Of a stretch of 64,000 nucleotides of DNA, positions 2,052 to 44,768 are shown in pieces. Below the pieces are notes generated by a model. It saw only the letters and a program-made list of their open reading frames with translations, was not told the origin of the DNA and searched no databases. A program made the position numbers and the translations under genes. Source of the DNA: a virus (taxonomy: Duplodnaviria; Caudoviricetes); the IMG/VR virus record IMGVR_UViG_3300032323_001428, positions 1 through 64,000 of that record; one strand, 5' to 3'. How positions within the stretch are numbered: the stretch's first letter is position 1; each line of letters starts with the position of its first letter.

Positions 2052-2072
2052 TCTTAAGTGTTTATACTATGT

Positions 2073-14612: not shown

Positions 14613-14618
14613 TATTTA

Positions 14619-15658: not shown

Positions 15659-15663
15659 AAAAG

Positions 15664-27468: not shown

Positions 27469-28140
27469 TTAACCTTTTTTCCAAGATTCACCTTCTGCTT
27501 TTCTTCTACGAGCAAGTCCTGCTTCTACATTAGATCCAGGATTGCGGTAGAGGTATAAAGCATCTGGAACTTTGTCCCATTCTTTATTCTTCAGTGTGCG
27601 TGTAATAGTATTGAAATTATCACCACCATAAAAACCAGCACCAAGATTATAAGCAAAGGAGAGAAGTGCTCCTCTTTTGCCGTCAGACATTTCATTCCAG
27701 TGTGGAATTTTACGAAGTGATGGAAGAAACTGGTTCTTACATTGAGTAATCAATAACTCATCTGCTTCCTGTTGAGTGATGGTATCACCCATATGGAATG
27801 GTGATCCATCCTTCTTACGGGTAGTTCCCCAACCTATGGTGATTGGAAGTCCACCTGAAAGAGGATCTGGATATGCTTTGAGATGGCATCCTTCAAACTC
27901 TTTGATTAATTTAAGGCCCATCATAGGCATATCATCACCACCTGCTACAGGAGCGGTAGGACTAGCGGCAACCGCAGTTACCGCACTTCCCTTTTTTCCT
28001 CTATAAATCTCTGCCCAATCAATATTATCCTCAAGGTACTTAACAGGTAGGTTATCTTCTAACCATTGAACTGCTTTGATATGATTAGGGTTCTTCTCGT
28101 CATAAAACTTGAAGAAGTTGTGTAAGTCGATACGTGCCAT
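27469..28140 (-). CDS. GH24 lysozyme (endolysin) with an extra N-terminal domain
   Basis: LIKEFEG..L.AYPD...TIGWG, ALLSFAYNLG, GL.RRRKAE. Confidence 0.9.
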   Translation of the reverse strand: MARIDLHNFFKFYDEKNPNHIKAVQWLEDNLPVKYLEDNIDWAEIYRGKKGSAVTAVAASPTAPVAGGDDMPMMGLKLIKEFEGCHLKAYPDPLSGGLPITIGWGTTRKKDGSPFHMGDTITQQEADELLITQCKNQFLPSLRKIPHWNEMSDGKRGALLSFAYNLGAGFYGGDNFNTITRTLKNKEWDKVPDALYLYRNPGSNVEAGLARRRKAEGESWKKG

Positions 28141-28158
28141 TAGTTTTCTCCTTATGTA

Positions 28159-28830
28159 TCAATCGAAAATGCGACCCCAACCATCGCTGCCACCTGGGCA
28201 CCAACGATGCTTAAGAACTGCTTTGGTATAAACGGTCTTCTTACCGTTTGTTACTGGTCCAGTATAGTTGTCATTCAATGAACCATAAGGATCATTTACA
28301 TAGTATCCTTTACCATCTGGTGTCTTGCCGATCACTACACACATGTGCCCGCCAGTAGGTGAAGAAAGAGAACCCCTGTGAAGAATACCAATAACGACGG
28401 GTTTGCCAGCATCCAAACTCTTATCAATATCAGAGAAAGAAAGATTGTAACTAAAGTGTGACTTAACACCATAACCTTGTAGAACTTTGGTTTGAACTGA
28501 GTGATCAGTTGTGTCACCAATGGCAAATACTTTCTTAACATACTCATCATCACCTTTGATGCTTCCTGGTTTGAGGAAAGCAAGGCACATAGCACACGAT
28601 GAACTGTTACAAGTTCTATGTGCATCTCTGTAGTTGTCTACTTGATTAAAGTAGGGAACCGACAATACTGATGGTGTTGGCGGTTTTGTTCTAAACATCC
28701 CAATCCATTCAGTCTCAGAATCATCCAAGAATTCAACAGGTAGGTTATCCTCTAACCATTGAACTGCTGCTACATGATTTGCATTACCATCATCATAATA
28801 CTTAAAAAAGTTATGAAGATCCAGTGTCAT
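28159..28830 (-). CDS. C39-like cysteine peptidase with the same N-terminal domain as the lysozyme
   Basis: VPYFNQ.DN...C.SSSCAM, GHM.V..G, VNDPYG. Confidence 0.85.
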   Translation of the reverse strand: MTLDLHNFFKYYDDGNANHVAAVQWLEDNLPVEFLDDSETEWIGMFRTKPPTPSVLSVPYFNQVDNYRDAHRTCNSSSCAMCLAFLKPGSIKGDDEYVKKVFAIGDTTDHSVQTKVLQGYGVKSHFSYNLSFSDIDKSLDAGKPVVIGILHRGSLSSPTGGHMCVVIGKTPDGKGYYVNDPYGSLNDNYTGPVTNGKKTVYTKAVLKHRWCPGGSDGWGRIFD

Positions 28831-29000
28831 TTTACCTCGTCTGTAACACTATCCTATTTAGATGATGCTGTTTTTATTAACAAAACAACAACAAAAATTG
28901 AAAAATAAATTTGGAAAATATGATAAATCATCCAAATAAAAAAAATCCTCACCCTTATTTAGAGTGAGGATAAGTATGATTACCTATTTTAGTTAGTGTT

Positions 29001-29210
29001 TCACCATACTCCAGGAATTACTTGCCCGGTTAGTACGTAGGCACCAACGGCAGCCACAAATCCCATCATCGCAAATCGTCCGTTTAGTTTTTCTGCACGT
29101 TCTGCATAAGTTTCAACTTCATTTTGTTGCATGTCTTTCTCCGTAATGTACATTGTTGGTTCTTTGGCAAACATGTTTTGTTGCCCACGATCATTAGTCG
29201 TTACAGTCAT
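29001..29210 (-). CDS. hli: high-light-inducible protein
   Basis: AEKLNGRFAMMGF.AAVGAY..TGQ.IPG; NMFAKEP N-terminus. Confidence 0.95.
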   Translation of the reverse strand: MTVTTNDRGQQNMFAKEPTMYITEKDMQQNEVETYAERAEKLNGRFAMMGFVAAVGAYVLTGQVIPGVW

Positions 29211-29279: not shown

Positions 29280-29978
29280 TTATTGATTTTTTTCTATCCT
29301 ATAAGCCATTCCATTTTCATGAAATCCATCAATTTCAATATATTCTGTTTTTTTATTAATGTCATCGTTTGGAGCTAGACAAAGATAAGGTCCAGGCATT
29401 CCTTCGTTACCAGAATAAGTTCTATATCCAGACATATGAAAATGAGAGGTTATAATTTGAAGACCTGGATTACGAATTTCATAATGTTCTGATATTAATT
29501 TTGCAATCTTATTATCACATCTAGGTTTTCCAAGATGGAAATTCATTTCGTCTGTAACTTTGATTGGGGTTTGGAATGCCCATACATCCTGAGATGATGA
29601 ATTATTAAATGGTGCAATACACCATTCACCATTTTCACAAAATACTTCCCATCTAGTCAAAGCAATAAAGACCTCTAGAAGATTAACTTCTTTTAGATTT
29701 GATATAGTATCATCAAAAATAATATCTGCATTTGAAATAATACAAATTTGATTGTTTAAATTTGTATTACAAAAATCAAACAAATCCTTATATGTTGGTC
29801 TATCTTCTTTTTGGATTATTTCTATTTTATCAGACTTAAAGTTCAATTTGGAATCGTCAGAAATAAAGACATATATTTTTTCAATATGTTCGTTTTCTAA
29901 ATTTTCGTGAATGCAAGTAATGTATTCACTATGTCTCTGATAATCATCAGATCTAAAATATTCTATTAATAAATTCAT
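29280..29978 (-). CDS. putative GT-A-fold glycosyltransferase-like protein
   Basis: ISNADIIFD, ALTRW, SQDVW.F, G.P.CDN. Confidence 0.6.
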   Translation of the reverse strand: MNLLIEYFRSDDYQRHSEYITCIHENLENEHIEKIYVFISDDSKLNFKSDKIEIIQKEDRPTYKDLFDFCNTNLNNQICIISNADIIFDDTISNLKEVNLLEVFIALTRWEVFCENGEWCIAPFNNSSSQDVWAFQTPIKVTDEMNFHLGKPRCDNKIAKLISEHYEIRNPGLQIITSHFHMSGYRTYSGNEGMPGPYLCLAPNDDINKKTEYIEIDGFHENGMAYRIEKNQ

Positions 29979-30868
29979 TGAGTTTTAATCCAATCCATTA
30001 AATTTACTTGAGGTCTCCATCCAAAAATGGTTCTCAATTTTCCATTATTTGCAAGAGTAGTTCTTGACTCTCCAATTCTTTCTGGAATATTTATTTGATT
30101 TTCAGAAATGGCATTTGCAATTTCATTAATTGAGTAATTAATTCCATTACCTACATTATAAAGTTCACCATAAAAATCACCATCAATATCTTTTGTTGCT
30201 GCAAGAATATTTGCTTGAACTACATCAGATACGTGTGTGAAGTCTCTACGTTGTTCTCCATCACCAACAATTGTAAGTGCCTCTCCTTTTTTCTTTTGCT
30301 CCAAGAATAACCCAATTACTGGGGCATATTGTCCATTTAAAGGTTGCCGTTCACCATAAACATTAAAATACCTAAAGAAAATTGTTTTAAGACCAAATAG
30401 GTCATTATACATTTTACAGAGTTTTTCTCCTGCAACTTTAGATACCGAGTAAGGATTTAAACAATCATCAGGTTGATTTTCGTGATTTGGAGGTTCATTG
30501 AATCCATAACCAGATGAAGTAGAAGAATAAATCACTTTCTTCACTCCTGCTTCTCTAGCACACTGAAGAACAGTAATAGTACCAATACAATTGGTATTAA
30601 CTGCTTTAATTGGATTCAAAATTGCTGGTTGAATCCTAGCATCAGCAGCAAGATGAAAGACATAATCCACACCTTCATAAAGAGGTCTAGTTTTTTCATA
30701 ATCACAAATATCATACTTATAATTTTGTGCATTTGGGTTCCAATAAAATTCTTCATTGGATTCGGCACTTTCATTATCAATTACTATAACTTTGTGTTCC
30801 AACTCAATAAGTACATCAACAAGATTAGATCCAATAAATCCAGCACCACCTGTTACTAAAGATTTCAT
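29975..30868 (-). CDS. NAD-dependent nucleotide-sugar epimerase (extended SDR)
   Basis: VTGGAGFIGS, YSVSK, RYFNVYG, RDFTHVSD. Confidence 0.9.
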   Translation of the reverse strand: MKSLVTGGAGFIGSNLVDVLIELEHKVIVIDNESAESNEEFYWNPNAQNYKYDICDYEKTRPLYEGVDYVFHLAADARIQPAILNPIKAVNTNCIGTITVLQCAREAGVKKVIYSSTSSGYGFNEPPNHENQPDDCLNPYSVSKVAGEKLCKMYNDLFGLKTIFFRYFNVYGERQPLNGQYAPVIGLFLEQKKKGEALTIVGDGEQRRDFTHVSDVVQANILAATKDIDGDFYGELYNVGNGINYSINEIANAISENQINIPERIGESRTTLANNGKLRTIFGWRPQVNLMDWIKTQ

Positions 30869-31818
30869 TTCAAATAAACCTCTTTAAATTTTTGAACTAC
30901 TTTTTCTGGAGAATAATCTTGATAACAATTCCATTCCAATTGATTTATTTCATTTTTATCCAAGTTCAATAGAATATTATCTATATCTTCTTTATTCTCA
31001 TAAAATATTCCCTTTTCACCTAAAGTATCAATATGATTTCTTTCGAGAGAATTGTAATAAGTAATGATAGGTTTATTTCTAATTGAAAACTCTGCACAAG
31101 ATAACCCAAAAGATTCACCAATATTCCTTGCATGTAACATCACATCTGAAGTATTAATGAATTTAACTTTTTCATTTAAATCAGCAGTTGGATCTAGGTA
31201 GATTATTCTTTCATGCTCACAAAAAGGTTCCGTATATTGAAAAACAAACCAAATGTCATTTCTTTTTTCTAAAGTTTCTACAATTGATTGCTTTACAAAT
31301 GGAAGATCAAAAGTATCCCACCCACCATTTCTTCCAAAAACTAGAGCATCTTTTGGAATTCCCAATTCATCTCTCATACTCATACTATGATCTGGAAGAT
31401 TTACAATATATGGAACGTAAGGTATTTTATAATCAGTTATTTTAGATAACCATTTTGAACCCATAGCATAAACATCTCCATGAACCCATTCTGGTTTCCA
31501 CCATCCAGATATAGCATTTACTAAATTTTTAGAAACTGATGAAATTACACCATCAGGTTCACCTCCCTTTTCCATTAAAAATGCATCACATTTATTTTTG
31601 GATAAAATATCATCTATTTGATTTTTATCTTCATATCCAAAAACAGGAAATTCTTTTTCAAATTTTTTAATGACACTTTTATCATTAAAATTATTTTTTA
31701 AATTAAACATAATGATTGGGTCAATATCAAGATAGTGTCTAGTCCAATATGCCCAATCATAAATTGCTACTGTGGTTCCCCGCAAACACAAAGAATTATC
31801 ATGAAATGCTATTCTCAT
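30865..31818 (-). CDS. GT-B-fold glycosyltransferase
   Basis: RGTTVA.YD.A, GR.GG..TFD, LHAR..GESFGL..AEF. Confidence 0.75.
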   Translation of the reverse strand: MRIAFHDNSLCLRGTTVAIYDWAYWTRHYLDIDPIIMFNLKNNFNDKSVIKKFEKEFPVFGYEDKNQIDDILSKNKCDAFLMEKGGEPDGVISSVSKNLVNAISGWWKPEWVHGDVYAMGSKWLSKITDYKIPYVPYIVNLPDHSMSMRDELGIPKDALVFGRNGGWDTFDLPFVKQSIVETLEKRNDIWFVFQYTEPFCEHERIIYLDPTADLNEKVKFINTSDVMLHARNIGESFGLSCAEFSIRNKPIITYYNSLERNHIDTLGEKGIFYENKEDIDNILLNLDKNEINQLEWNCYQDYSPEKVVQKFKEVYLK

Positions 31819-32624
31819 AAAGATATCTTTTTCTCCAAATCCTTTCTAGCAGTATCTCCAAGACTATCCATTTGTTCAAAGAAAGCAAGAGAAAGATTGA
31901 TATTATCTTGAGAAATTGTTGGACTAAAAGGACCAACAGGTTCATAACCATATTCAATATCCAAAATACGTTGGAAATTATCACCTTGAAAAATATCACC
32001 CCAACACTTTTCGCCAATTGTAGGGACAGTATCCAAGTAGAATGAATAGATTATTTGTTCAGTTGTTCTTTGACTTCCAGTAATAATTTGTGTATTTCCA
32101 AAATTACATTGGTTAACAAAAGCAATTGCAGACTCTGCATCGATTCCCACTTCTTCCATACGACCAGGAATGATACTTACATATCCAACATCATAGGTGC
32201 AACATTTAAGAGCAGTAGATGAATCTGCAAGACCAGTAACATTAGTAATTACATACTGATTATATTCATCAACATACTCAAGAACATTTTGGAAGGGAGG
32301 GATTTTCATTCCAACCTTACAGTTTCCTTGTGTTGCATCAGTAATAATTTTTGCATATTCAAGTATAATCTTTGAATCTAATAAGGAATAAGGTGCTTGA
32401 ATGTGAATTTCCCCTTCATTATCACCACGAATATCAGCAATTAGTTTTCCCATTTCTGATGCATGGGAAATCCATTCATCCAAATGATACATATCAACTT
32501 TACTGAATGCATTTGGATTTGTCGTTATACCTCGCACCAATTTTGGATCAATTTCAGATCCATATTTTTCCATTGTATCTTTAATAAATGGAATGTTAGC
32601 TGTATCAAAAAAGAAATCTCTCAT
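31815..32624 (-). CDS. divergent transaldolase/fructose-6-phosphate-aldolase family protein
   Basis: FFDTAN, GITTNP, MKIP (Schiff-base Lys), NVT, YVS..PGR, GSQR. Confidence 0.75.
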   Translation of the reverse strand: MRDFFFDTANIPFIKDTMEKYGSEIDPKLVRGITTNPNAFSKVDMYHLDEWISHASEMGKLIADIRGDNEGEIHIQAPYSLLDSKIILEYAKIITDATQGNCKVGMKIPPFQNVLEYVDEYNQYVITNVTGLADSSTALKCCTYDVGYVSIIPGRMEEVGIDAESAIAFVNQCNFGNTQIITGSQRTTEQIIYSFYLDTVPTIGEKCWGDIFQGDNFQRILDIEYGYEPVGPFSPTISQDNINLSLAFFEQMDSLGDTARKDLEKKISL

Positions 32625-32625
32625 T

Positions 32626-32988
32626 TTATTCTCCAATTTGTTTGTTAAAATCTTCCCAATTAGTTAATCTAATTGCTTTATCATCAATATAAAAGTCAGC
32701 AAGTGGTTTTCCAAAATGAATTTCATCATAAGGAATTTGATGTTTATTTAACCATTCTAACACAATAGGTGATTGATTGGCAATAATTTTACCTACATTA
32801 TTATTATATGTAAGCATGTTTCTTGCTGTCATAATAATAATATAGTGACCTTTAGACTTTAATCTTTGCAGTGTCTCAACTGCACCAGGAAGAGGTTCAA
32901 CGTCAAGATAGTGTTGTCCCTCTTTCTTAATGTGACATATTGTTCCATCAAGGTCAAAACAAAATTTATAAATTTTCGTAGACATCAT
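32626..32988 (-). CDS. small HAD phosphatase (capsule-biosynthesis type)
   Basis: DLDGT, TAR, GKP.AD.YIDD. Confidence 0.85.
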   Translation of the reverse strand: MMSTKIYKFCFDLDGTICHIKKEGQHYLDVEPLPGAVETLQRLKSKGHYIIIMTARNMLTYNNNVGKIIANQSPIVLEWLNKHQIPYDEIHFGKPLADFYIDDKAIRLTNWEDFNKQIGE

Positions 32989-33934
32989 TTAAAATATTAA
33001 GTCCAGTCATCAACATTGCTTTTTGTCTATCTAAATTGTCATAATGTCTTGCACACATTCCAACAAAGATAAGACCTTCAATTAATTTTATCTTATTATA
33101 ATCAAATTTATACTCATCAGAAATAGATAAAAATTTATTATTAATATCATTTTTTCTTTGCTCATTATGAAAAGAAAGTTTGAATTGATTATCTACATTT
33201 GAAACATCAAACTCATCATAGATAAAAAATTCATAACCACCATTACATGAATGTGATATTTTTGCAAGATCATAATATGAATCACCGAAGAATTTTGTTT
33301 TACCAAAAACTCCTCTAGGATCAATGAATTTTAAAATCACATCATTGGTAATATCATTTACTCCATAAAGAATATTACTAAAACAAAGATCACCATGAAT
33401 AAAATGAAATTTGTCATCACATATTGATGTTTCAATATAAGATTTAATTTTTTCCCAAATAACATCAAAGGATTTTAAAATCTTACCATTAAATACAAAT
33501 TCTTTTGTATTTCTAAATTGAGAGAAAAAATCAAACTTATATATCAAATTAATGTATTCTTTCTCTGTCTTATCCACAAACATCAATAAAGAGTCTTCTT
33601 TAGATGCAAGGACGGAAGTAGATTCTTTATAGTTATTGATGTAAGAAAAAATAAAGTCAAAAACTTTAGTCCAAAAATCAGGATTATAATCCTGATTTAT
33701 CATAACATTTCCCAAATTTCCATAAGCATAATATTCAAGTTCCATCTGATAAATTTTTTCATCAGTTGAATAATTCAACATTCTTGGAAAATAAACTTGA
33801 ATATCCTTAGGGAGATTTTGATAGTATTCAATCTCCCCAAGAAGACGATCTTCTTCACTAGATTTAATAATACTTGCTTTTGTTTTTGAATTAAATTCAA
33901 AATTATTATAAGCTCTAGTTATAAAGTCCATCAA
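32966..33934 (-). CDS. APH/choline-kinase-fold sugar kinase
   Basis: E..YY..LP, HGDLCFSNIL, FIDPRG.FG, GD.YYDLAK..HS. Confidence 0.8.
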   Translation of the reverse strand: MMDFITRAYNNFEFNSKTKASIIKSSEEDRLLGEIEYYQNLPKDIQVYFPRMLNYSTDEKIYQMELEYYAYGNLGNVMINQDYNPDFWTKVFDFIFSYINNYKESTSVLASKEDSLLMFVDKTEKEYINLIYKFDFFSQFRNTKEFVFNGKILKSFDVIWEKIKSYIETSICDDKFHFIHGDLCFSNILYGVNDITNDVILKFIDPRGVFGKTKFFGDSYYDLAKISHSCNGGYEFFIYDEFDVSNVDNQFKLSFHNEQRKNDINNKFLSISDEYKFDYNKIKLIEGLIFVGMCARHYDNLDRQKAMLMTGLNILNDVYENL

Positions 33935-35370
33935 ATCTTCATCATATTTTCTAAGGTTTCTTTACTAACAGAAGAAAGAGGAACTCTTCCAGATTCAGAC
34001 TTGCTATAAACTTCATCATGAAGTTCTTCAATTGAAACAAAAGTAAGATTATAGATCTTAGCAAACTGACGGAGAGTATCACCCTTAATCATTTTTCCAT
34101 ATTCATCCATAATTTCGATAATAACTCCAACCTCCTTCATACCTGCTAAACGGAGAATTTCAACACATCCCTCAGTGTGACCTCTACGTTCAGACAGAAG
34201 ACCAGGACGGGCACGGAGAGGAAATAAGTGACCAGGTTGTGCAAGAGAACTTGGTTTAGATTCATCAGAGCAGAAGGTATTGATAGTAGCAAGACGATCA
34301 CCAACGGACATACCAGTAGTAGCACCTTCTACTGCATCAATACTAGTTGCAAAAGGAGTTCCATACTTATCCATTGAATTGCAATTCATCATAGGAATTT
34401 CAAGTTGATCCAGTTTTTCCTGATTGCAAGGAAGGCACATCAATCCTCTTGCGTGTCTCATAGCAAAAAGAAGATTTTCTTCGGTTGCTTTTTCTGCTGC
34501 AAATACAATGTCTCCTTCAAATTCACGATCATAATCATCAACCATAACAATTGGTTTACCATTGCGAATATCTTCAACAGCTTGTTTTACATTCGATTGC
34601 TTAAGATTCAAAATAATTTCTCCAGGACTTCCAAGGGACACAAAATCATCACATTCCATATGATAGTTTTTAATTTTATAACCATCATTAATCAAATAAT
34701 TATAAGTCAAAGCAACATATTTTTCTTTAACACAAGAAACTTTACCAGATGACCATCCTGCATCCGAATCATCAGTCATAAGGTTCTTTGCACTTTCAAC
34801 AAAAAGGTTTGCATTCTTCCAGTAGAAAATTCCATTCAAAGACCAAGGAGAAATTGCAACTTTTTCAGCAAGTCTAGTTGCATAACCATTTTCATCGAGT
34901 TCAATATGACTATATCTACTTTCTTCACCAACAACAACATCCGAATGATCGTATGTGGAAACTACTCCGTCACAGTCTGTTTCTTTAATAAATTTAATGA
35001 ACTTATTGGGATTCCAAGGAGTATACTGATCACAATTTGTAATAACCAGTGGTTCAGAAAGATCAATTTTTCCAGTTTCTAATGCAAGAAGACAAGTTTC
35101 TGCTTGTCCTCTAGTAGAATGTCCAATATCAATAATTTCCATATCCAAATAATATTTGTTCTTAATATCAGTAAGAACTTGAATATATTTTGCTGGAAGA
35201 CCATTAACAATAATGTAATATTTTCCAGGAAGATTAAGTGAGGAAATTGCCCATTCAATTAGTGGTTTTCCTTTTACATCTACAAATGGTTTTGGTTCAT
35301 TGTAACCATTTGATTTAAAACGAGTTCCAAGACCCGCAATTGGAAATAAAATGTTCATAGTCATATACAA
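33931..35370 (-). CDS. fusion: sugar-phosphate nucleotidyltransferase-like domain + DHBP synthase (RibB) domain
   Basis: N-half PIAGLGTRF..PKP, GQAET, NCDQ, EK; C-half DD.DREFEGD, RGL.C, S.DA..G.TTG.S..DR, PGH.FPL, RRGHTE. Confidence 0.88.
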   Translation of the reverse strand: MYMTMNILFPIAGLGTRFKSNGYNEPKPFVDVKGKPLIEWAISSLNLPGKYYIIVNGLPAKYIQVLTDIKNKYYLDMEIIDIGHSTRGQAETCLLALETGKIDLSEPLVITNCDQYTPWNPNKFIKFIKETDCDGVVSTYDHSDVVVGEESRYSHIELDENGYATRLAEKVAISPWSLNGIFYWKNANLFVESAKNLMTDDSDAGWSSGKVSCVKEKYVALTYNYLINDGYKIKNYHMECDDFVSLGSPGEIILNLKQSNVKQAVEDIRNGKPIVMVDDYDREFEGDIVFAAEKATEENLLFAMRHARGLMCLPCNQEKLDQLEIPMMNCNSMDKYGTPFATSIDAVEGATTGMSVGDRLATINTFCSDESKPSSLAQPGHLFPLRARPGLLSERRGHTEGCVEILRLAGMKEVGVIIEIMDEYGKMIKGDTLRQFAKIYNLTFVSIEELHDEVYSKSESGRVPLSSVSKETLENMMKI

Positions 35371-35383
35371 GGGTTATAAAAAA

Positions 35384-35412
35384 ATTTTAAAATAAAAAGC
35401 AAAAAATGTCAA
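35384..35412 (-). promoter_or_regulatory. sigma70-type promoter heading the nucleotidyltransferase-RibB sub-operon
   Basis: TTGACA-N17-TAAAAT. Confidence 0.7.
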
Positions 35413-36207
35413 TCAAATAAACATATCTTCGAAAGATTGGTAGTCTGAATAATTTTCTATTCTCAGAACATCACCAAGAACCTTATCAAATGTGTCTATC
35501 TTAATATTATTTAGAATGCACTGAGAATAGACCAATCTACAAGCATCCAATCTAGCCATATGTAAAGAATAATCAGTACCAACCAATTGATTAAAGTTTA
35601 ACCAAGATTCACAAACTGTTTTCATAATACTTGACGACGAAAGAAAAAACATTTCATATACCCTATCTGGACAATAAGATATTCCAGTATTAATATGAAA
35701 TAAAGTGTCATCAATTCTGTCAAAATATTTTTCTATGTCAGTATGAACATGTAAAAAATCTGGTCTGGTTTTAATTGCAATATCATATTTAATTTTATTT
35801 TCTTTTTCGTATTCTTCAAGTAGTTGGTATGCAGAATACAATTTATATAAAGAAGGAATACTAGTTGCTTTTGAATGATACAAAGTATCTGGACTTTGAT
35901 TTAAAAATGATTTTATTTCACCATTAGATTGATTGTGAATAAATTCTCCATAATCATCTATTGTATATTTTTTAATATTAGGAATTAAGTTAATATGCTC
36001 TAAACTGATTGATTTGTTTTTTTCTTGATTTTGAATATCTGCTTGTTCCTTTAAAGCATGTTCACTCCAAACAGATATTCCTCTATTATTCCAAGTTGAT
36101 AAAAATACATCACAATTAAATTTTTCAATAAATTGATTTAAATATTTTAATACTTTTGGGTGATCAAAAGTTCTCATTTGACCACAAATTAATAATGCTA
36201 TTTTCAT
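35413..36207 (-). CDS. putative glycosyltransferase-like protein (MKIA...GQ.R family) copy 1
   Basis: KIALLICGQMR, DVF.STW, YD..IKTRPD. Confidence 0.65.
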   Translation of the reverse strand: MKIALLICGQMRTFDHPKVLKYLNQFIEKFNCDVFLSTWNNRGISVWSEHALKEQADIQNQEKNKSISLEHINLIPNIKKYTIDDYGEFIHNQSNGEIKSFLNQSPDTLYHSKATSIPSLYKLYSAYQLLEEYEKENKIKYDIAIKTRPDFLHVHTDIEKYFDRIDDTLFHINTGISYCPDRVYEMFFLSSSSIMKTVCESWLNFNQLVGTDYSLHMARLDACRLVYSQCILNNIKIDTFDKVLGDVLRIENYSDYQSFEDMFI

Positions 36208-36872
36208 TATACAGATGATAAAACTTTATTTCTAACAAAAAACCAACCACCGTGCCTATCATTTGGATCCAAAACAAGCATATTCATATTTTCTTGTCTG
36301 TGTTTTACAGAACGAAAAACAAGTCGATGTTGACACAATGGCATTTTTTCATCATTCAAATAAAGATCAAGATTTGAATAAATTTTTGTAATGTCTAAAA
36401 TATCTTGTTTATTTCCACAAATAAATTTATTATCAATGTGAGTTGTTAACCATTCGTCTCCAGGAACATATGAAGTGTATAATTCATTCTTATTCAAAGA
36501 AAGTTCTTTTAATGACATTCCCTTTCCAATAATATCAGTTCTTGTCAAGATCCAATGGTCATAATCATCATCAACAGTTTCAATAAGACTATGAAGTTTA
36601 TTCATAGAATATAAAGGTGACAATGTAACAAATACAGACTTAGTGATTTTGCTTGTATCTATTTCATATAAAAATTCTGTTGAAATATCTACTTGAGGTT
36701 CTACAATAATTCTTTTTGGATTAAAAATAGTCTTGATGTCATTTTCTATTTCAGCATCTCCCCAAAAATGAGCATAATAATCTACATCACAATCTTTATA
36801 TAATTCTTCATTAAAGTCAATCCATTGATCAAAATATCTTGGTTGACCAAAAAAACATACTGCAAGTTTCAT
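36207..36872 (-). CDS. putative glycosyltransferase-like protein copy 2
   Basis: KLAVCFFGQPR, D.Y.HFW, YD..ILTRTD. Confidence 0.65.
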   Translation of the reverse strand: MKLAVCFFGQPRYFDQWIDFNEELYKDCDVDYYAHFWGDAEIENDIKTIFNPKRIIVEPQVDISTEFLYEIDTSKITKSVFVTLSPLYSMNKLHSLIETVDDDYDHWILTRTDIIGKGMSLKELSLNKNELYTSYVPGDEWLTTHIDNKFICGNKQDILDITKIYSNLDLYLNDEKMPLCQHRLVFRSVKHRQENMNMLVLDPNDRHGGWFFVRNKVLSSV

Positions 36873-36877
36873 ACTTT

Positions 36878-37588
36878 TTAAAAACTTTTTCTATTTGGAT
36901 TTGGATCTATAACACACCAACCAGTTCTATCAATACCAGAACTAATTTCAATTCTATTTAATCCCATTCTTTCAATATGAATTCCAACAAAACTTTCTGG
37001 ATGAAAAATATTTCCCTCATTCCAATAAGTATCAATATTATCAATCAAAGAAGAGTATTTGTCAATTCCTTGAGAATTGGAAATTGCAATCACATCAGAA
37101 GTTCCCAAAGGATGAACAGTTTTAAAATCCCAAGCAGTTGGTATTAATATACTACCACTTTTTGCTAATTGAAGTTCTTCGTTGGATATTGTTCCATACC
37201 AACTTAAATCAGTCCTAGATTTTATAACAACATCATAACAAAAATTATTTTCAGTTTGATATTTATTTTTGAGTTGATTACAAAGTTTAACATTATAAAT
37301 CCCACTCAACCAAGTTTTTGGTGTTACTTCTGGTCTTTTATTTTGATTAAAAATTTCATCATTTGAGTGAATTTCTTTCCTTACATTTTCATTATATTCT
37401 TTAAGAATATATTTCTTTGGTTTCCAAAAATTTTCAATTTTTTCTTTACAATATTCAATTCCTTTGTTATTTGGATAACCAGAAAAAAATACATCTGGCA
37501 AAAGAGGATCTAAAATATTTTCTTTTAAACTTGGATACATATCCTCAAATGTATCCAATCTCCCAACTAATAAAAGAGCAATTTTCAT
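36878..37588 (-). CDS. putative glycosyltransferase-like protein copy 3
   Basis: KIALLLVGRL, YDVVIKSRTD, D..AI, HPE. Confidence 0.65.
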   Translation of the reverse strand: MKIALLLVGRLDTFEDMYPSLKENILDPLLPDVFFSGYPNNKGIEYCKEKIENFWKPKKYILKEYNENVRKEIHSNDEIFNQNKRPEVTPKTWLSGIYNVKLCNQLKNKYQTENNFCYDVVIKSRTDLSWYGTISNEELQLAKSGSILIPTAWDFKTVHPLGTSDVIAISNSQGIDKYSSLIDNIDTYWNEGNIFHPESFVGIHIERMGLNRIEISSGIDRTGWCVIDPNPNRKSF

Positions 37589-38697
37589 ATAAAAATTGCA
37601 GTACTATTAATCTCCAAAATACCATTTTTAATTTCTTCATCATAAGATCCAGACCTCAAAACAATTTTTGGAGAATCAATTCCAGAAAGACATTTTGGAG
37701 ATTTTACAGTAATGTTTGTTCCATACATCCTTTTCTCTTGTTTATTAAAATCATTATCAAGGATATTGATAATTTGATTTTCATTAATTCCCATAGAAAT
37801 TAAATATTGAGAAAAAATATGAGCACCAAAAAGGTAAAATTTTTCTCCGTTTAATGTTGAATTAATATACTCAACATCATCAATCAGATTTTTAACATAA
37901 TCATTAAACATTGGTTTAATGTATGAAAAATCAAACTCATATGAGGAATTATTTTTTTTCTTTTTTACTGCTTTTATAAAAATTGAATGATTGTCAATTT
38001 CCTTTTCTTCTATTTCAAAATCATATTTACACAAAATATATTCCAACACATATTCATCAATATAAAAAGTATGTTCAAAATTAAGTGTATTTAAATATCC
38101 CATAGAAAGCCAGTGCTTCATATTTGGTATTGAAATATATTGAATACCACCAATCTCTAAAATTGAATTTATTTTATTAAAAAATGTATGTGGTTCATAA
38201 ACGTGTTCACAAAGATGAGAATGAATTACTGCATCAAATTTTTGATTAAATTCAAACTCTTCAAAAAAACCACGAAAGAATTTAACTCTAGAATCTTTAC
38301 TTTTTTGTTCTGATGGTTCAATAATGTTCCAATAAAAATCTTCATTAGTAGAAATAAAATGATCTACTAGTTTTCCTGTAGCTCCACCTATTTCTAAAAT
38401 ATTTTTTGGATTACTTTTTTTGATAAAATCAGCAAATTTTTTATGATGCAATCCCCAAGTTTTTCCTACAGTTCCTGGTGTATGGTGATTATAATAAAGA
38501 AGATCTAGAGGAAGTAATTTCATCAATTGAATTATTCCTTTGTCTGATATCCCCCATTTCATATCATAATATTGATCTGGTGCATTGTCATCAAAATCAA
38601 CACAACCCATAAAAATAGGAAAATTTTTAAAAGTAAAAACTTCTGTTAAATTTTTATCTTCAGTAATTGCACAATTTTTTCTTGTAATAATATTCAT
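37585..38697 (-). CDS. SAM-dependent methyltransferase resembling NDP-sugar C-methyltransferases
   Basis: LEIGGATG, HSHL.EH, SIPN, FEHT; C-terminal FGAH...ILDND..KQ.K..YGT domain. Confidence 0.7.
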   Translation of the reverse strand: MNIITRKNCAITEDKNLTEVFTFKNFPIFMGCVDFDDNAPDQYYDMKWGISDKGIIQLMKLLPLDLLYYNHHTPGTVGKTWGLHHKKFADFIKKSNPKNILEIGGATGKLVDHFISTNEDFYWNIIEPSEQKSKDSRVKFFRGFFEEFEFNQKFDAVIHSHLCEHVYEPHTFFNKINSILEIGGIQYISIPNMKHWLSMGYLNTLNFEHTFYIDEYVLEYILCKYDFEIEEKEIDNHSIFIKAVKKKKNNSSYEFDFSYIKPMFNDYVKNLIDDVEYINSTLNGEKFYLFGAHIFSQYLISMGINENQIINILDNDFNKQEKRMYGTNITVKSPKCLSGIDSPKIVLRSGSYDEEIKNGILEINSTAIFI

Positions 38698-38731
38698 AAT
38701 TTTTTTCTTATTATCCAAATTGAATATTTTT

Positions 38732-39520
38732 TCATATTAATTTGCATTTAGGTTTCCATTCGAATGATGTTGATACCCTGCGAGTTTCTACATGAAGATA
38801 AGATTTGGATTCTTTTCTTGAAAGTTTTAGATTTACATACCCAGATGAAGTAATTATATCCAAAAGTTGTTTAATAGTCAAACTTTGAGATCCAACCACA
38901 AACATATCATGTTTGATATACAAATTTTTTTCTATACACTTTTCAATTAAATCTACTAAATCATCAACGTGTATTATATCTATTCTAGTATCAAAATTTG
39001 TATATAAGTCTATAACATTATCTGTATTTACACTACTAATAAGTTTGTCAACTAAACCATTAATTCTATTTGATGGTAGTGATTTTCCTCCCCATACATT
39101 AGACACTCTTAATGCGATAGTGTCACATTCAACTGTTTTTAAAATATTTTCAACTTGTAATTTAAGGTCACCATAAAGAGTATTTGGATTTACCAATGAA
39201 TTTTCATCAACTGTTCTTTCGTGATTTACATACAATCCACCAGCAGTAGAAATAAAAATAATTTTCCCGTTTGGATTTTTCTTTGAATAAAAATCAAATA
39301 TTTTTTTACTATTAATTACATCATTTTTTACAAATTTTTCAAATTCATCGTAAGTATTTCTTGTAGTTGAAGACCATGCTAAATGAATAAGACATGAATT
39401 TTCATGAGAATCAAATACATCTTGAGGTTCATCTCGATATGAAACTTTAGTAACAAGTTGTTTACATAATTCTAAAAATCTCTTACCAATTAGACCACTA
39501 CATCCAGTAACGTAAATCAT
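38732..39520 (-). CDS. NAD-dependent epimerase/reductase (SDR)
   Basis: VTGCSGLIG, HLAW, STAG, YGDLK, LRVSNVWG. Confidence 0.8.
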   Translation of the reverse strand: MIYVTGCSGLIGKRFLELCKQLVTKVSYRDEPQDVFDSHENSCLIHLAWSSTTRNTYDEFEKFVKNDVINSKKIFDFYSKKNPNGKIIFISTAGGLYVNHERTVDENSLVNPNTLYGDLKLQVENILKTVECDTIALRVSNVWGGKSLPSNRINGLVDKLISSVNTDNVIDLYTNFDTRIDIIHVDDLVDLIEKCIEKNLYIKHDMFVVGSQSLTIKQLLDIITSSGYVNLKLSRKESKSYLHVETRRVSTSFEWKPKCKLI

Positions 39521-39529
39521 AAAATTCCT

Positions 39530-40258
39530 CTATCTTATTCTTGTTGCCCATATTGGATATTGCTTTCCGTCAATATTCCAGTTTGGGTGCCAATATGTTT
39601 CGTCTTGAATACAATAAAAATTATGTTTTTTACTCAATAAAGAAAAAATAGATTGATCAAATCTATGTTCTCCTTTAAAAGTTTTATGATTTGGTATTAC
39701 TGATTCAGAATCATCGATATAATGATAATTATTTTCTGTTCCTATTAGTTTACACTCATCGATAATGGATCTATTTTCTTTAGTATTTTTTAAAAAATAT
39801 GTGGTCGAACATCTTTGTCCTGTATGAAAATAATTTTCATCATTTGGAAATATTTTAAAGTATGTATCTGATTTTGTATACTCTCTTTCTAAATGAAAAA
39901 TATCAAAACACAAAGAACCATTTTCCATTACAGTATCATAATACTCACACATTCTTTTTTTTCCACCAACATTAAAAGTACATCCAACATCAGCATAACA
40001 AATAACATCATCTTCTGGAATTGATTTCATCAATTCAGATATTAAAAAAAATTTCCAAATCCAAAAACCATATGCTCTTGTAGATTCCATAAAATTTTTA
40101 TGCTCTAAAAGTTCATTACAATAATCAAAACAATTTTTTTCAGAGAACAAATTAATAGATTTGAAAACTCCTAAATTCAATGCTTCATTATGAAATCTAT
40201 TTCTAGTAGAAGCATATTTTTGTTCTGGAGAACAAAACGAAATTAAATGTAAATTCAT
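39530..40258 (-). CDS. putative glycosyltransferase
   Basis: GFWIWK, Y.DVGC, EHRFDQSIFSLL. Confidence 0.65.
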   Translation of the reverse strand: MNLHLISFCSPEQKYASTRNRFHNEALNLGVFKSINLFSEKNCFDYCNELLEHKNFMESTRAYGFWIWKFFLISELMKSIPEDDVICYADVGCTFNVGGKKRMCEYYDTVMENGSLCFDIFHLEREYTKSDTYFKIFPNDENYFHTGQRCSTTYFLKNTKENRSIIDECKLIGTENNYHYIDDSESVIPNHKTFKGEHRFDQSIFSLLSKKHNFYCIQDETYWHPNWNIDGKQYPIWATRIR

Positions 40259-41100
40259 TTTAAAATTTTATAAAGATTTTTAATTAATGGTTCAAGAGAA
40301 ATTTTATTTTCAAATAAAGGTTCAGAGTTTATTCTATCATACAATTCTCTATTTGTATCAATTTCTTTAATTGTTTCAATCACTTCTTCATCAGACATAT
40401 TTACTGTATTGATAAAAGACTTTGGATTAAAATCTTTACAAACAGTTTCGTCCCCATAATAAATTGGAATGTTTCCAGCAATTTTTCCGTGAAGTAATTT
40501 TTCAGTATGATATCCTGGTGAAATAGAATTTTCATAACAAAGAGAAAACTTATAGTTTGAAATCAAATCTAATTTATGTTTTTCTCCATCTGGTAAATTA
40601 TATTCTGGATTTGCTTTACCAAAAATATCTACCCTTTTATACTCAGAAATTTTTTGAATTGCATTAAGTCTTGACTCAACCATTTTACCAAAAACAATTG
40701 AACAAAACTTATCTTTTGGTTTTTGGGTAAATTCATTTTCACCATAAAGATAAGATTCGGGAATCAACCATTCTGGATTTAAATATGTTTTTACATTAAA
40801 CCAATCAATATAAAGATACCAAAGAGGAAGACGAAAGTTCTTTCCTTCATAATCATCAAAATCAAATGTGAGTGAATAATCACATTTTTTAAAATTTGGT
40901 CTTTGATTTTCTCCAGTAAAAAATATTTTTTTACAATTTTTATATAAATTGTTTTCCATACCAAAAACACTGAAGAACATTACATCAGCATCTTCTGGAT
41001 GTACAACTTCAACATTCTCAAAAGATTGTTTTAGAAGATTAATAAAAAAGTTATTGCTTGGGTCAAAAGGAGACCAAAAATCAGAGAAGCATATTTTCAT
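40255..41100 (-). CDS. GT10 alpha-1,3-fucosyltransferase-like protein
   Basis: FTGEN.RP, R.PLW, YKFSLCYENS..PGY.TEKL, IPIYYG. Confidence 0.85.
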   Translation of the reverse strand: MKICFSDFWSPFDPSNNFFINLLKQSFENVEVVHPEDADVMFFSVFGMENNLYKNCKKIFFTGENQRPNFKKCDYSLTFDFDDYEGKNFRLPLWYLYIDWFNVKTYLNPEWLIPESYLYGENEFTQKPKDKFCSIVFGKMVESRLNAIQKISEYKRVDIFGKANPEYNLPDGEKHKLDLISNYKFSLCYENSISPGYHTEKLLHGKIAGNIPIYYGDETVCKDFNPKSFINTVNMSDEEVIETIKEIDTNRELYDRINSEPLFENKISLEPLIKNLYKILK

Positions 41101-41108
41101 AATTAAAA

Positions 41109-42491
41109 TTAATTTATATTATTTGAATTCCAGTAATTACCAGAAATAGCAGAACAAAAATCTAGACTTTGTATAGCCAAAGATGGTTCAAACCAATAAT
41201 TATTTAAATTGAACTTTTCAATCAAATAATTATAAAAATGATCTGAAGGTAGATTAATATCAGATATACAATCTATTACCTTATTTACCATAGATCCACT
41301 AACTAAGAATGCGTGAGTACATCTAGATCCTCTGTTAGTTTTATAAACATATGTACCTTCAATATTTGGTTCGTGTAAATTCAAACAAGATCCAACCCAA
41401 GCAATATCCCAATCATCTGGAAGTTGAGATATAAAAAGATTGCAATAATTTACAAAATCATCACATAACGTAACATCATCTTCCAAAATTAAAGTTATTT
41501 GATATTGTTTTTTGAAAATATCTTTTAATATGGATACGTGTTTTAATGCTAACGATCTCTCAGAATTTTGAGCATTATCATCATAATAATCTAATCCTTT
41601 TTTCCAATCTTTGAACACTTTGGGATATTCTTTTTCTATCTCTTCAATATTCCATTCAGTTTTATCAAAATTTTCTACAAATTCATGTCTATAAATTTTT
41701 TCTTCTTTAAATTGTTCCAGGATAGATTTTTTTCTTTCCTCTAATTTTTTATAATGACAAATATAAACATTATCAACATTTAACTTTGGATGCAAAAGTT
41801 CTTTCTTTGCTAATTCATTTCTCCAAGGTTCTTTCTCAAAATAAAGATATTCACTTTCTGGAAATTTAAAAGTAAATTTATTATTATAATCAATTCCGTA
41901 AATTCTATAAGAAATTAACTCTTTTGAAAAAGTTATATCAGTATTATGATCAATATTATTAAAATTTAAATTCTCACCAAACAAATCGTAGTGCAATGAC
42001 ATTATTGCCTTGGAATAAACCTGAGGTCCTGTCATTTGTAATATATCATTTGGATATGAATTATTTTGAATATTATCAACAACCAATTCAATAACTTTTT
42101 TTAGAATTGGATGTTCTTTATCAAAAATCAAAGCCCATTGAACGAAGGTGTTTGGGTTAGTTTCTGCTGTGATAATAGCAGTATCATTTTCTTGTATAAG
42201 TTTATTTAAAGAAACATCAATAGATGAGTCCAAATCCACATATACTCCACCGTATTTGTAAAGAACTAAATATCTCCAAAAATCAACTTTTGCCACAGGA
42301 ACATTCAATCTATTAAAGCATTCCGATACTTCTCCTGGATAAAAAGTATTTACAAATTCATCAATTTCAGAATCAGTATAAAGTTGATAGTTATATTCAG
42401 AATTTAAACTCCTCATATTATCAACTTTTTTTTGTATTTCTGGATGAAGATCTTTAGTTATCCAAGACTGAAATATATTTTTAGGTATCAT
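41109..42491 (-). CDS. fused GT32 (DXD) + GT25 glycosyltransferase
   Basis: IPK.I.Q.W, DFWRY..LY.YGGVY.DLD, TGP; then ERK, SL..KH, LILEDD, RCTHA. Confidence 0.8.
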   Translation of the reverse strand: MIPKNIFQSWITKDLHPEIQKKVDNMRSLNSEYNYQLYTDSEIDEFVNTFYPGEVSECFNRLNVPVAKVDFWRYLVLYKYGGVYVDLDSSIDVSLNKLIQENDTAIITAETNPNTFVQWALIFDKEHPILKKVIELVVDNIQNNSYPNDILQMTGPQVYSKAIMSLHYDLFGENLNFNNIDHNTDITFSKELISYRIYGIDYNNKFTFKFPESEYLYFEKEPWRNELAKKELLHPKLNVDNVYICHYKKLEERKKSILEQFKEEKIYRHEFVENFDKTEWNIEEIEKEYPKVFKDWKKGLDYYDDNAQNSERSLALKHVSILKDIFKKQYQITLILEDDVTLCDDFVNYCNLFISQLPDDWDIAWVGSCLNLHEPNIEGTYVYKTNRGSRCTHAFLVSGSMVNKVIDCISDINLPSDHFYNYLIEKFNLNNYWFEPSLAIQSLDFCSAISGNYWNSNNIN

Positions 42492-43249
42492 AACCACCAA
42501 TTAAGTTTATCATTTATTGCCAAATTGCTTGGTCCTGTATAGTTTGGATAATCCAAACCATCCAAAGGATATGGTTTAGTTTCTTTATGTATAGTAACAT
42601 AATTTCCCTTATCAGTATGAATGCACATATCTTTTCTTAGATAAGAACATTCAATTACATCAGGAAAATCTTCAAATGGGTTGGCACCATTATTAACGTG
42701 AATATGATACAAATAGAAATGTTTATTTAATTTTTCAAACATTCTAATGACAGACTCACCATTATCATTAAGTGCCCTACCACCATTCTGAGGTACTCCT
42801 TCCACAATACGATTTTCACCACCTATCCAGTGAATTTCAATAGAAATCTGAGAAAACTTTAAAAGATTTTCTTCTTTCATATTAGGCAAAATCTCATATT
42901 CACCTCCTTCTATGTCAATACACATCAAAAGATTGGTATCATTTACCAAATCAAGTTCATCATCAAAAACTTCTGATGTTACATAAATTTGTTTAAATCG
43001 ATAGTTTGGGTGCTCATTGTGGTAAAAAGGTTCTGCATCATACATGTGTATAATTTTTCCCATTTGTGCCAATTGAAAATCGGATCCACAAACTGGTCCT
43101 ATTCCAAGTGAATAAACATCACTAGTTCTCAATAATGGTTCTTGATAAATTACATATCCACCATCACAAGGAGGACCAATTCTCATCTTGGTAAAACCAA
43201 GATCATAAGGAGTAAGTAATTCTTTCAACTTATCATAATATGTTTTCAT
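42488..43249 (-). CDS. FkbM/Methyltransf_22-like methyltransferase
   Basis: RIG...DGGY, YSLGI, IDIEGGE, Q..IEIH, H.NN. Confidence 0.7.
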   Translation of the reverse strand: MKTYYDKLKELLTPYDLGFTKMRIGPPCDGGYVIYQEPLLRTSDVYSLGIGPVCGSDFQLAQMGKIIHMYDAEPFYHNEHPNYRFKQIYVTSEVFDDELDLVNDTNLLMCIDIEGGEYEILPNMKEENLLKFSQISIEIHWIGGENRIVEGVPQNGGRALNDNGESVIRMFEKLNKHFYLYHIHVNNGANPFEDFPDVIECSYLRKDMCIHTDKGNYVTIHKETKPYPLDGLDYPNYTGPSNLAINDKLNWWL

Positions 43250-44106: not shown

Positions 44107-44768
44107 AAGAACCATAATTTTTCCTCCTTAAATTTTTTAGTCTTTTCTTCTACACCTACCATCCAATTATTATGGACTATTACGGCATTTTTTTTCTTTC
44201 CTTCATTGTAATATACATGTCCGTTGGGAAACAAGTCTGGACTCAATATTGCAATATAATCTCTGTAATTTTTTAAAGCAATCTCATTTACAATTAGTTG
44301 GTCGTCTTCAATTTCATTAGATCCACACTCATTCACCAAAGATTCACATTCTTTAGTATCATTAAAAACCATAAATCCAGAACAAAGAGTAGATCCTGGA
44401 CTGTCCGATTGAAATAAAACTTCTTCATTTCCTTCAATCAATTCAATTGGATTTTCAACAAATACAATATCAGTATCTACCCAACAAAGATTCTTATTTT
44501 CTTGGTAAATTTTTTTAATAAGAGACCATTTGATTTTAACAATATTTCTAAAACCACTTTCTTTATCAAAAGTCCAATCTTGATACTCTGTGATTGGTTG
44601 ATCTATATGAAGAAAAGCATTTTTATATTTTTTTAAATTTTCATATGCATTTAAATCCAAACAAGCAATATAAAAATCATCAATATCAATTCCCACATTT
44701 TTAGCAGAAATCAACATGTTCTTACAGATGTCTATACATCCACTATTTAAAAATGTAAGGAATTTCAT
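44103..44768 (-). CDS. nucleotide-diphospho-sugar transferase (GT77-like)
   Basis: WVDTDIVF..NP, CSGFM, DDQ, FPNG, HNNW..G...K. Confidence 0.8.
   Translation of the reverse strand: MKFLTFLNSGCIDICKNMLISAKNVGIDIDDFYIACLDLNAYENLKKYKNAFLHIDQPITEYQDWTFDKESGFRNIVKIKWSLIKKIYQENKNLCWVDTDIVFVENPIELIEGNEEVLFQSDSPGSTLCSGFMVFNDTKECESLVNECGSNEIEDDQLIVNEIALKNYRDYIAILSPDLFPNGHVYYNEGKKKNAVIVHNNWMVGVEEKTKKFKEEKLWFL

Follow-up and report, generated by a model that had tools for sequence, protein, structure and literature searches.

A RibB–nucleotidyltransferase fusion in a phage glycan locus: a candidate route from ribulose-5-phosphate to a nucleotide-activated sugar

Why should a phage carry RibB, to our knowledge known so far solely as a riboflavin enzyme, fused to a nucleotidyltransferase among genes for glycan synthesis? 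The question is raised by the first 64 kb (64,000 nucleotides, here called the window; G+C 25-44%) of the 91-kb linear IMG/VR virus record IMGVR_UViG_3300032323_001428, which is about 48% complete according to CheckV. A 17-kb glycan locus (29.3-46.7 kb of the window) contains a cassette of genes for five functions: a nucleotidyltransferase (NT) fused to RibB, the 3,4-dihydroxy-2-butanone-4-phosphate (DHBP) synthase, then a kinase, a HAD phosphatase and a transaldolase-like (TAL-like) protein. We put at roughly 55% the probability that the five functions together make a nucleotide-activated sugar, with ribulose-5-phosphate (Ru5P) supplying the carbon via RibB and neighbouring transferases using the product. 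The record belongs to a marine cyanophage; its closest cultured relative is Synechococcus phage S-SKS1 (Llyrvirus), whose complete 208-kb genome bears the cassette in identical gene order and at about 75% DNA identity across it. An earlier note on this DNA, made from the sequence alone, had described an overlapping gene run here; all of its genes do lie on the minus strand, at the coordinates given below and further on, and neighbours overlap or abut by 4-23 bases. The cassette consists of the following parts.

34615-35370, minus strand: NT domain of the fusion protein, residues ~5-252 (PF00483)
33931-34614, minus strand: RibB (DHBP synthase) domain of the fusion protein and C-terminal tail (PF00926)
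32966-33934, minus strand: APH-fold sugar(-phosphate) kinase, from model and Foldseek; homologue of the kinase half of phage AfhE
32626-32988, minus strand: 120-aa capless HAD phosphatase of the AfhF / 1xpj / EcbF-BcbF type, from Pfam HAD families and a DxDGT motif
31815-32636, minus strand: divergent class-I aldolase-like protein of the small TAL/FSA family, from PF00923 and PDB profile matches

Judging by its relatives, the fusion is genuine and old. The open reading frame (ORF) at 33931-35370 on the minus strand encodes an N-terminal NTP_transferase domain (PF00483, residues 13-196, E = 1.7e-6; 28.2 bits, cut-off 21.2), followed by DHBP_synthase towards the C-terminus (PF00926, residues 263-451, E = 2e-65; 220.4 bits, cut-off 26.4). 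Its true start is probably the ATG at 35358, since homologues begin at MNIL. A protein search with the fusion returned 659 relatives at E ≤ 0.001 from 7999 scored candidates. PF00926 occurs together with PF00483 and/or PF12804 in 98 of the best 120 of these 659, at identities from 99% down to 39%, and 16 fusion relatives align unbroken with invariant motifs in both domains. The fusion and its architecture, as first proposed, are thus found again in these relatives, and an origin by read error is ruled out.

In the NT domain, G13, K27, D114 and E169-K170 are invariant in the 16 aligned fusions, and G15 and R17 are conserved; we take G-x-G-x-R...K and EK to be the NT motifs of sugar-1-phosphate nucleotidyltransferases. 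The domain matches the NCBIfam models of MurU, AglF, archaeal GlmU and HddC weakly, and its best PDB match is 4evw (E = 4e-9). The RibB domain is far closer to known enzymes: it scores 185.6 bits against the TIGR00506 cut-off of 177.45, and solved RibBs in the PDB match it at E ~1e-49. The motifs by which it had been recognised (DREFEGD, TTGMSVGDR, PGHLFPL, RRGHTE) are in the translation and invariant in the 16 aligned fusions. Across 117 RibBs, cassette ones included, the catalytic and metal- or phosphate-binding motifs (DRExExD, Cys, TTGxSxxDR, PGHxFPL, RxGHTE, Glu) are at least 95% conserved.

Comparison of viral loci (numbered with the prefix L) supports a physical and evolutionary coupling of RibB to the NT, kinase, HAD and TAL-like genes. 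A scan of IMG/VR by means of the RibB motifs fetched 29 loci. Kinase, HAD and TAL-like genes are present in 28 of them, the other one (L111) ending within RibB; in 27 of the 29 the three lie directly 3′ of RibB in the same order, and in L105 they are 5.3 kb away. RibB is fused to NT in 20 of these loci, stands alone (~203 aa) in eight and received no call in one. With the TAL-like protein as the point of entry, an independent scan fetched 47 loci, including 19 on new contigs. RibB was present in 46 (the contig of L117 starts inside the kinase), the kinase in all 47 and HAD in 46; L143, the locus without a HAD match, has a divergent DxDG ORF after the TAL-like gene. NT was detected by tblastn in 44 of the 47 (L136 has a divergent 359-aa NT, L153 none, and L117 is cut). 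Its position varies: besides fusions to RibB and, in L156 (369 aa), to HAD, there are NT genes that stand free upstream, separate the kinase from HAD or come after the TAL-like gene, and second NT paralogues occur in L097-L101 and L110. The co-occurrence that the earlier note had proposed to check is therefore borne out for five functions, which recur together on 48 distinct viral contigs; the 317-aa transferase and the SDR that follow them in the window are present in some loci only, and do not belong to the set.

Some cassettes have further neighbours. At L104:7098-8624 and L145:9575-11154, and also in L106, L137, L138 and L147-L149, the cassette adjoins a gene for a RuBisCO-like protein of 397-409 aa (PF00016, E = 6e-36 and 3e-33). 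It is preceded by a small cupin-like ORF, and the two phage lineages that carry it are only ~50% identical; the window has no RuBisCO-like gene. An analogy with methionine salvage was considered for these neighbours and rejected, as only some cassettes have them.

Does RibB serve riboflavin synthesis here? The models for ribA, ribH, ribE and ribD (PF00925, PF00885, PF00677, PF01872) matched neither the 91-kb record nor the complete S-SKS1 genome, which extends to both records the statement that the window holds no other riboflavin gene and supports the view that this RibB belongs to no riboflavin operon. A quick IQ-TREE phylogeny was computed from 117 distinct RibB sequences, with SH-aLRT support and no bootstrap; its 79 RibBs from other genomes are the closest cellular matches and the RibBA of genome G001. 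One branch (SH-aLRT 98) separates 37 cassette RibBs and a Woesearchaeota RibB from these 79. Pro339, Val356 and Leu391-Leu392 form a signature of the cassette clade; at these positions the residues of other RibBs are Ala, Ala and Gly-Val. Like the RibB and RibBA of riboflavin synthesis, the cassette protein exceeds the Pfam and TIGR00506 cut-offs and has every catalytic motif; unlike them, it is joined to NT instead of GTP cyclohydrolase II, forms a separate clade and is accompanied by no other rib gene in the record or S-SKS1.

RibB might nevertheless be an ordinary auxiliary metabolic gene (AMG) that raises host riboflavin or FMN, in which case the neighbours' sugar would be unrelated and the NT fusion a chance effect of tightly packed genes. 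As this would require, the RibB domain has all catalytic residues and shares 40-57% identity with cellular RibBs, and the host would provide the remaining riboflavin pathway. However, an AMG of this kind accounts poorly for RibB in 46 of the 47 loci fetched with the TAL-like protein, for NT-RibB fusions in many lineages at 39-100% identity and for a separate clade. Moreover, a Saprospiraceae metagenome-assembled genome (MAG) with the cassette (L034) encodes a separate RibBA and ribH besides its cassette copy, and a Woesearchaeota genome of ~1 Mb, in which ribH was not found, has an orphan RibB in a glycan locus. We hold the AMG explanation to be the least likely of those weighed here. A RibB repurposed for a nucleoside diphosphate (NDP) sugar, as the earlier note suggested, is the best reading because of the non-riboflavin setting, the coupling to the set and the glycosyltransferase neighbours. 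Of the two fates proposed for the C4 unit in that note, reduction finds no support, as no reductase is conserved.

The sugar-activating half of the cassette resembles a described module. The kinase has no match in a Pfam scan, and searches of PDB sequences with the single sequence and with a profile gave chance-level protein-kinase matches alone. Its predicted structure (pLDDT 90.3) matches APH (aminoglycoside) and methylthioribose-kinase folds in Foldseek, which bears out the APH-fold kinase proposed at the outset. Lys24, Glu34, HGDxCFSN and IDPRG are invariant in 18 homologues. The HAD phosphatase was likewise correctly recognised: it belongs to Pfam HAD families, and its best PDB match is 1xpj (E = 1e-23). 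Against the EcbF-BcbF model TIGR01689 it gives E = 2.2e-28 and 98.8 bits, below the cut-off of 162; by this comparison it is a relative, not a member, of the EcbF-BcbF capsule phosphatases. Two small HAD phosphatases of the 1xpj family with DxDGT/DxDNT motifs, L001:15038-15394 (S-SKS1 SWZG_00040) and L112:6029-6409 (orf075 of Acinetobacter phage AM101), are labelled 'phosphoheptose isomerase', which is likely a propagated misannotation.

Distant matches to the kinase are found in 279 phage records, mostly of T4-like phages of Escherichia (137) and Acinetobacter (53). In phage AM101 the kinase aligns with the C-terminal half of orf076, a 554-aa 'NDP-sugar pyrophosphorylase' (residues 212-425, BLASTP E = 5e-12), with HGDxxFSN and IDPRGxFGKTK in common. 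This gene is flanked by an arabinose-5-phosphate isomerase and the 126-aa orf075 (orf075-077), and the cassette HAD matches orf075 at E = 8e-15 (BLASTP). AfhE of phage HY126 combines an arabinose-5-phosphate kinase with a UDP-arabinose pyrophosphorylase, AfhF is a Mg-dependent phosphatase that converts the 1,5-bisphosphate to arabinose-1-phosphate, and homologues in RB69 and DLP3 were assigned via structure, the top match of the phosphatase being 1xpj (PMC13326640). At the level of sequence, the cassette kinase and HAD are homologous to this UDP-arabinose module of T4-like phages. Both systems are phage-encoded, start from Ru5P and have a homologous APH-fold kinase, a ~120-aa HAD and an NT, which in the arabinofuranose pathway (HY126, RB69, DLP3; AM101) lead from sugar phosphate to bisphosphate, sugar-1-phosphate and NDP-sugar. 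They differ in three respects. The front end is an arabinose-5-phosphate isomerase in T4-like phages and RibB with the TAL-like protein in the cassette, the latter pair occupying the slot of the former. The NT is joined to the kinase there, and here to RibB or HAD or free. Finally, the acceptor there is 5-hydroxycytosine in DNA, and a ThyA homologue is encoded nearby, whereas the cassette stands in a multi-transferase glycan locus.

The order isomerase or synthase, anomeric kinase, HAD phosphatase and NT is also that of the GDP-D-glycero-alpha-D-manno-heptose route (GmhA/HddA/GmhB/HddC) and of MupP/AmgK/MurU salvage, and the NT domain weakly matches the HddC and MurU models. HddA, however, is a GHMP kinase, whereas the cassette kinase has the APH fold, and unlike in the heptose route no SIS isomerase was seen among the scanned proteins of the window locus. 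The claim that no such pathway has been described thus fails for the kinase, HAD and NT half. It stands for the front end: a full-text literature search yielded no paper tying RibB or DHBP to a nucleotidyltransferase, an aldolase, phage glycans or cyanophage AMGs. What is new, and partly supported, is the placing of RibB and a TAL-like protein in front of a sugar-activation module of the AfhE/AfhF type, in an arrangement widespread in marine phages and present in a few cellular genomes.

The TAL-like protein had been described as divergent, and the family searches agree. It matches PF00923 (TAL_FSA) at E = 4e-10 and 39.9 bits (cut-off 27) and gives profile matches to PDB 1vpx, 3r8r and 3s0c, and it reaches 26.3 bits against the fsa/talC equivalog TIGR00875, whose cut-off is 245.95. 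In common with TalC and FSA (1vpx, 3r8r, 3s0c), members of a TIM-barrel family, it retains the Schiff-base Lys111, Asp11, T38-T39-N40-P41, Asn132/Thr134 and the phosphate site Arg159/Ser188/Arg190; K111, D11, TTNP, R159, S188 and R190 are invariant or nearly so in the aligned TAL-like proteins. It differs from them by a ~60-aa C-terminal extension and at two positions considered below. S-SKS1 also encodes a canonical cyanophage talC, so the TAL-like protein would be a second, specialised paralogue. A search for longer fused forms found none, which is weak evidence.

In the proposed pathway, the RibB domain would convert Ru5P to DHBP and formate, as its family and intact catalytic residues indicate. 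DHBP cannot cyclise, and an anomeric kinase would therefore need a longer sugar; C-C bond formation is thus the natural role for the TAL-like protein, although the choice of bond is tentative. Acting as a Schiff-base aldolase, it might join DHBP to a small donor or acceptor to give a sugar phosphate that closes a ring. By homology to AfhE and AfhF, the kinase would then add a phosphate at the anomeric hydroxyl, the small HAD would strip the distal phosphate from the bisphosphate so formed, and the NT would condense the resulting sugar-1(2)-phosphate with an NTP. The neighbourhood suggests that GT-A-like DUF7796 proteins and/or GT-B-like transferases may add the sugar to a fucose-containing, methylated glycan. 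As in the earlier note, we infer an aldol extension and a draw on the Calvin-cycle pool.

Our preferred guess for the product is that DHBP, the methyl-ketone analogue of glyceraldehyde-3-phosphate, accepts a C3 or C2 donor. The TAL-like protein would extend DHBP at its keto group by a dihydroxyacetone or glycolaldehyde unit, giving a C-methyl-branched ketohexose-6-phosphate or a 3-C-methyl-pentose-5-phosphate, which the kinase, HAD and NT would turn into an NDP-branched furanose. This proposal leans on the kept sugar-phosphate site and on the replacement of Glu by Gln and of the bulky Phe/Tyr by Ile in the TAL-like protein; it is possible, and we regard it as doubtful.

A pathway without aldol extension would be shorter. 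The NT might directly nucleotidylate DHBP, or a phosphate isomer of it repositioned by kinase and HAD, and the resulting NDP-C4 ketol might be a phospho-alcohol donor comparable to CDP-ribitol or CDP-glycerol. In favour of this, the NT is fused to the DHBP-making enzyme, it has weak matches to IspD and ribitol-5-phosphate cytidylyltransferases (E = 1e-3 to 6e-3), and enzymes in which a Ru5P reductase is fused to a cytidylyltransferase do exist. On the other hand, the TAL-like gene is as constant as RibB, the NT is often apart from RibB (fused to HAD or after the kinase) and scores higher against sugar-1-phosphate nucleotidyltransferases, and the neighbours resemble GT-A and GT-B enzymes; the window locus showed no phosphotransferase of the LicD, TagF or Stealth type. 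We consider direct nucleotidylation of a C4 unit quite unlikely.

Cellular relatives show how the parts of the cassette occur elsewhere. A RibB-pattern scan of cellular genome contigs gave 439 relatives, dominated by ordinary RibBs; among the 80 that were kept, L034 and L003 alone are cassette-like. On L003, a Woesearchaeota contig, lie genes for a canonical TAL, an NT-HAD-kinase fusion of 716 aa (901-3051), a methyltransferase, a Wzx-type flippase and RibB. The fusion adjoins the TAL and lies 4.3 kb from RibB; among the 80 cellular relatives kept, this RibB is the one nearest to the viral domain (54%). Kinase profile matches were obtained in 7 of 401 sampled genomes of the phylum of G001 and in 8 of 301 of that of G002. 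Around the kinase, seven bacterial or archaeal regions (stretches of 4.9-18 kb) were fetched: kinase and NT are present in all seven and HAD in five, and NT-kinase fusions have genes for Wzx, GT4 and GT2 as neighbours. On a Legionella plasmid, HAD, NT and a kinase that aligns at hhalign E = 1.4e-48 accompany genes of the WavE family. These polysaccharide-locus trios resemble that of the cassette in a full-length homologous kinase, an NT and a HAD that is 42-54% identical. Kinase/HAD/NT-type genes were noticed in capsule-like loci at L189:5319-9006 (E. coli plasmid) and L188:6049-8100 (Legionella plasmid), with Stealth, TagF-like and WavE neighbours; such plasmid-borne copies indicate that the activation trio is mobile among bacteria.

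Several observations weigh against a RibB-fed sugar pathway. RibB and the TAL-like gene were found in none of the seven fetched chromosomal regions, and the Legionella plasmid stretch has neither annotated. Since the trio occurs in cells without them, the trio alone needs no RibB. The TAL of L003 is canonical (Glu and Phe present) and may be simple housekeeping, and the L034 contig is only 7.3 kb long and could be viral DNA binned into the Saprospiraceae MAG. The cassette NT does not match the NT of AfhE-type proteins significantly by BLASTP. DHBP is a ketone, not a usual substrate of TAL or FSA. In the TAL-like protein, the third strand reads V-x-V-Q-x-P, with Gln80 and no acidic residue at the position of the TAL Glu, and Ile156 stands at the position of the TAL Phe or FSA Tyr in 17 of 17 full-length viral members, the truncated L034 protein agreeing. 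We assume that the strand-3 Glu of TAL and the Tyr before GR of FSA are the general acid-base residues, Phe occupying the Tyr position in transaldolases. As both the Glu and the Tyr are absent, the TAL-like protein may be no aldolase of the usual kind.

The same cellular loci allow another explanation, in which the trio activates an ordinary TAL/FSA product, such as fructose-6-phosphate or sedoheptulose-7-phosphate, to an NDP-ketofuranose, and RibB provides a substituent, removes Ru5P or has some other second activity. The kinship of the HAD to EcbF-BcbF capsule phosphatases, the trios without RibB and TAL in polysaccharide loci and the canonical TAL of the archaeal locus all speak for it. In the type B capsule of Pasteurella, BcbE and BcbG were shown to serve the fructose side chain, and BcbF is predicted to do so (PMC13552107); by analogy, fructose may be the substrate of EcbF-BcbF-type trios. 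A search of 401 Gammaproteobacteria with TIGR01689 gave one sub-threshold match. An ordinary product leaves unexplained, however, why RibB accompanies the TAL-like gene in 46 of 47 loci and why it is fused to NT; S-SKS1 already has its canonical talC, and the TAL-like protein is without the catalytic Glu and Tyr of fructose-6-phosphate chemistry. We judge this explanation unlikely, and retain the pathway in which RibB feeds the sugar.

Around the cassette, the run and the glycan locus comprise the following features.

35413-37588, minus strand: three DUF7796 paralogues; GT-A fold resembling that of GT6, from model and Foldseek
37585-46706, minus strand: rest of the glycan locus, from Pfam; methyltransferase, SDR, unassigned protein, GT10 fucosyltransferase, GT25/DXD transferase, FkbM-like protein, GT47, NDP-sugar transferase, GDP-fucose-synthase-like SDR and GDP-mannose 4,6-dehydratase (GMD)
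35384-35412, minus strand: TTGACA-N17-TAAAAT pattern in the 42-base gap 5′ of the fusion gene; 11 of 12 positions match
30865-31818, minus strand: putative glycosyltransferase of 317 aa, GT-B-like; frequent but not constant in the vicinity of the cassette
29975-30868, minus strand: GalE-like SDR epimerase/dehydratase (PF01370 Epimerase, E = 3.6e-57)
29280-29978, minus strand: 232-aa protein with no family assigned, final gene of the run, kept in close relatives only
28945-28971, minus strand: terminator-like hairpin of 11 pairs and a T run, 309 bases past the last gene of the run (29280)

The 317-aa protein matches Glycos_transf_1 weakly (PF00534, E = 0.0033, 17.4 bits against a cut-off of 26.4); its neighbours in a language-model atlas partly carry PF00534, and it has no PDB sequence match. 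The SDR, named as such from the start, is firmly placed by the Epimerase family; against TIGR01179 it gives E = 6e-43, below the cut-off, and its orthologues are confined to a close clade. DUF7796 paralogues are found near the cassette more often than any other neighbour, one member having tblastn matches in 42 locus rows, some contigs being counted twice. The predicted structure (pLDDT 84.3) matches the GT6 enzyme BoGT6a (4ayl) in Foldseek at E = 1.4e-8 and TM 0.52-0.57, and PF25072 gives 25.1 bits on a DUF7796 protein, against a cut-off of 27. Kinship of DUF7796 with WavE was tried and rejected (hhalign probability 0.4).

Which acceptor the sugar would be transferred to is a separate question. 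As in the T4-like phages with AfhE and AfhF, the same pathway might end on phage DNA, yielding a glycosylated base. In Straboviridae, homologues of the kinase and HAD function in the arabinosylation of DNA, and the cassette also occurs on T4-like contigs such as L104, which has gp44 and gp45 homologues. Against this, a search of the record and of S-SKS1 revealed no thymidylate-synthase (ThyA) homologue, the locus at 29.3-46.7 kb holds GDP-fucose genes, two methyltransferase-like proteins and at least six different transferase families, and the archaeal version lies beside a Wzx flippase. DNA as the acceptor is very unlikely in our estimation. Given the lack of a ThyA homologue and the multi-transferase GDP-fucose locus, a glycan on virion or cell-surface molecules is the more likely acceptor.

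The window also contains, in a cyanophage, a complete-looking GDP-fucose branch (GMD and an epimerase/reductase-like SDR) and a GT10 alpha-1,3-fucosyltransferase-like gene, at 40255-46706. In L110, a 159-kb contig, the region 3′ of the cassette (14180-17096) encodes a second HAD (HAD_2), the second NT paralogue, a sulfotransferase-like protein and an APS kinase, which suggests a sulfated glycan.

If the pathway is correct, a separately evolving RibB clade takes part in sugar-nucleotide synthesis, and DHBP has a second metabolic fate. The phage module that makes NDP-furanoses from pentose-phosphate-pathway intermediates would gain a new input, and the rerouting of pentose-phosphate and Calvin pools by cyanophages would be linked to glycan synthesis, not just to NADPH and nucleotides. 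The pathway would also point to a hitherto unrecognised sugar on abundant marine phages or their infected hosts. Should the C-methyl-branched product be right as well, it would represent a route to C-methyl-branched sugars independent of S-adenosylmethionine and a first role for RibB beyond flavin synthesis, spread through marine phages and also some DPANN archaea and Bacteroidota. As the cultured S-SKS1 carries the cassette, the question is directly testable.

Finally, some observations concern the borders of the locus. The TTGACA-N17-TAAAAT promoter that the earlier note placed before the run is present as a pattern, but its significance as a promoter is rejected, since promoter-like patterns are no commoner in this A+T-rich DNA than in shuffled sequence (107 observed against 117 ± 10.6). 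A 69-aa ORF resembling high-light-inducible proteins (hli-like, 29001-29210) lies directly 3′ of the glycan run, in the same place as the annotated hli of S-SKS1, and the terminator-like hairpin follows this ORF by 30 bases. The phage genes flanking the locus are those of a ribonucleotide reductase, a primase, a baseplate tail tube cap and two endolysin-like proteins. The last two are adjoining 223-aa genes (27469-28830) with the N-terminal segment MxxDLHNFFK...VQWLEDNLP in common, and their C-terminal domains differ (PHROG 7/3617 versus 10051).

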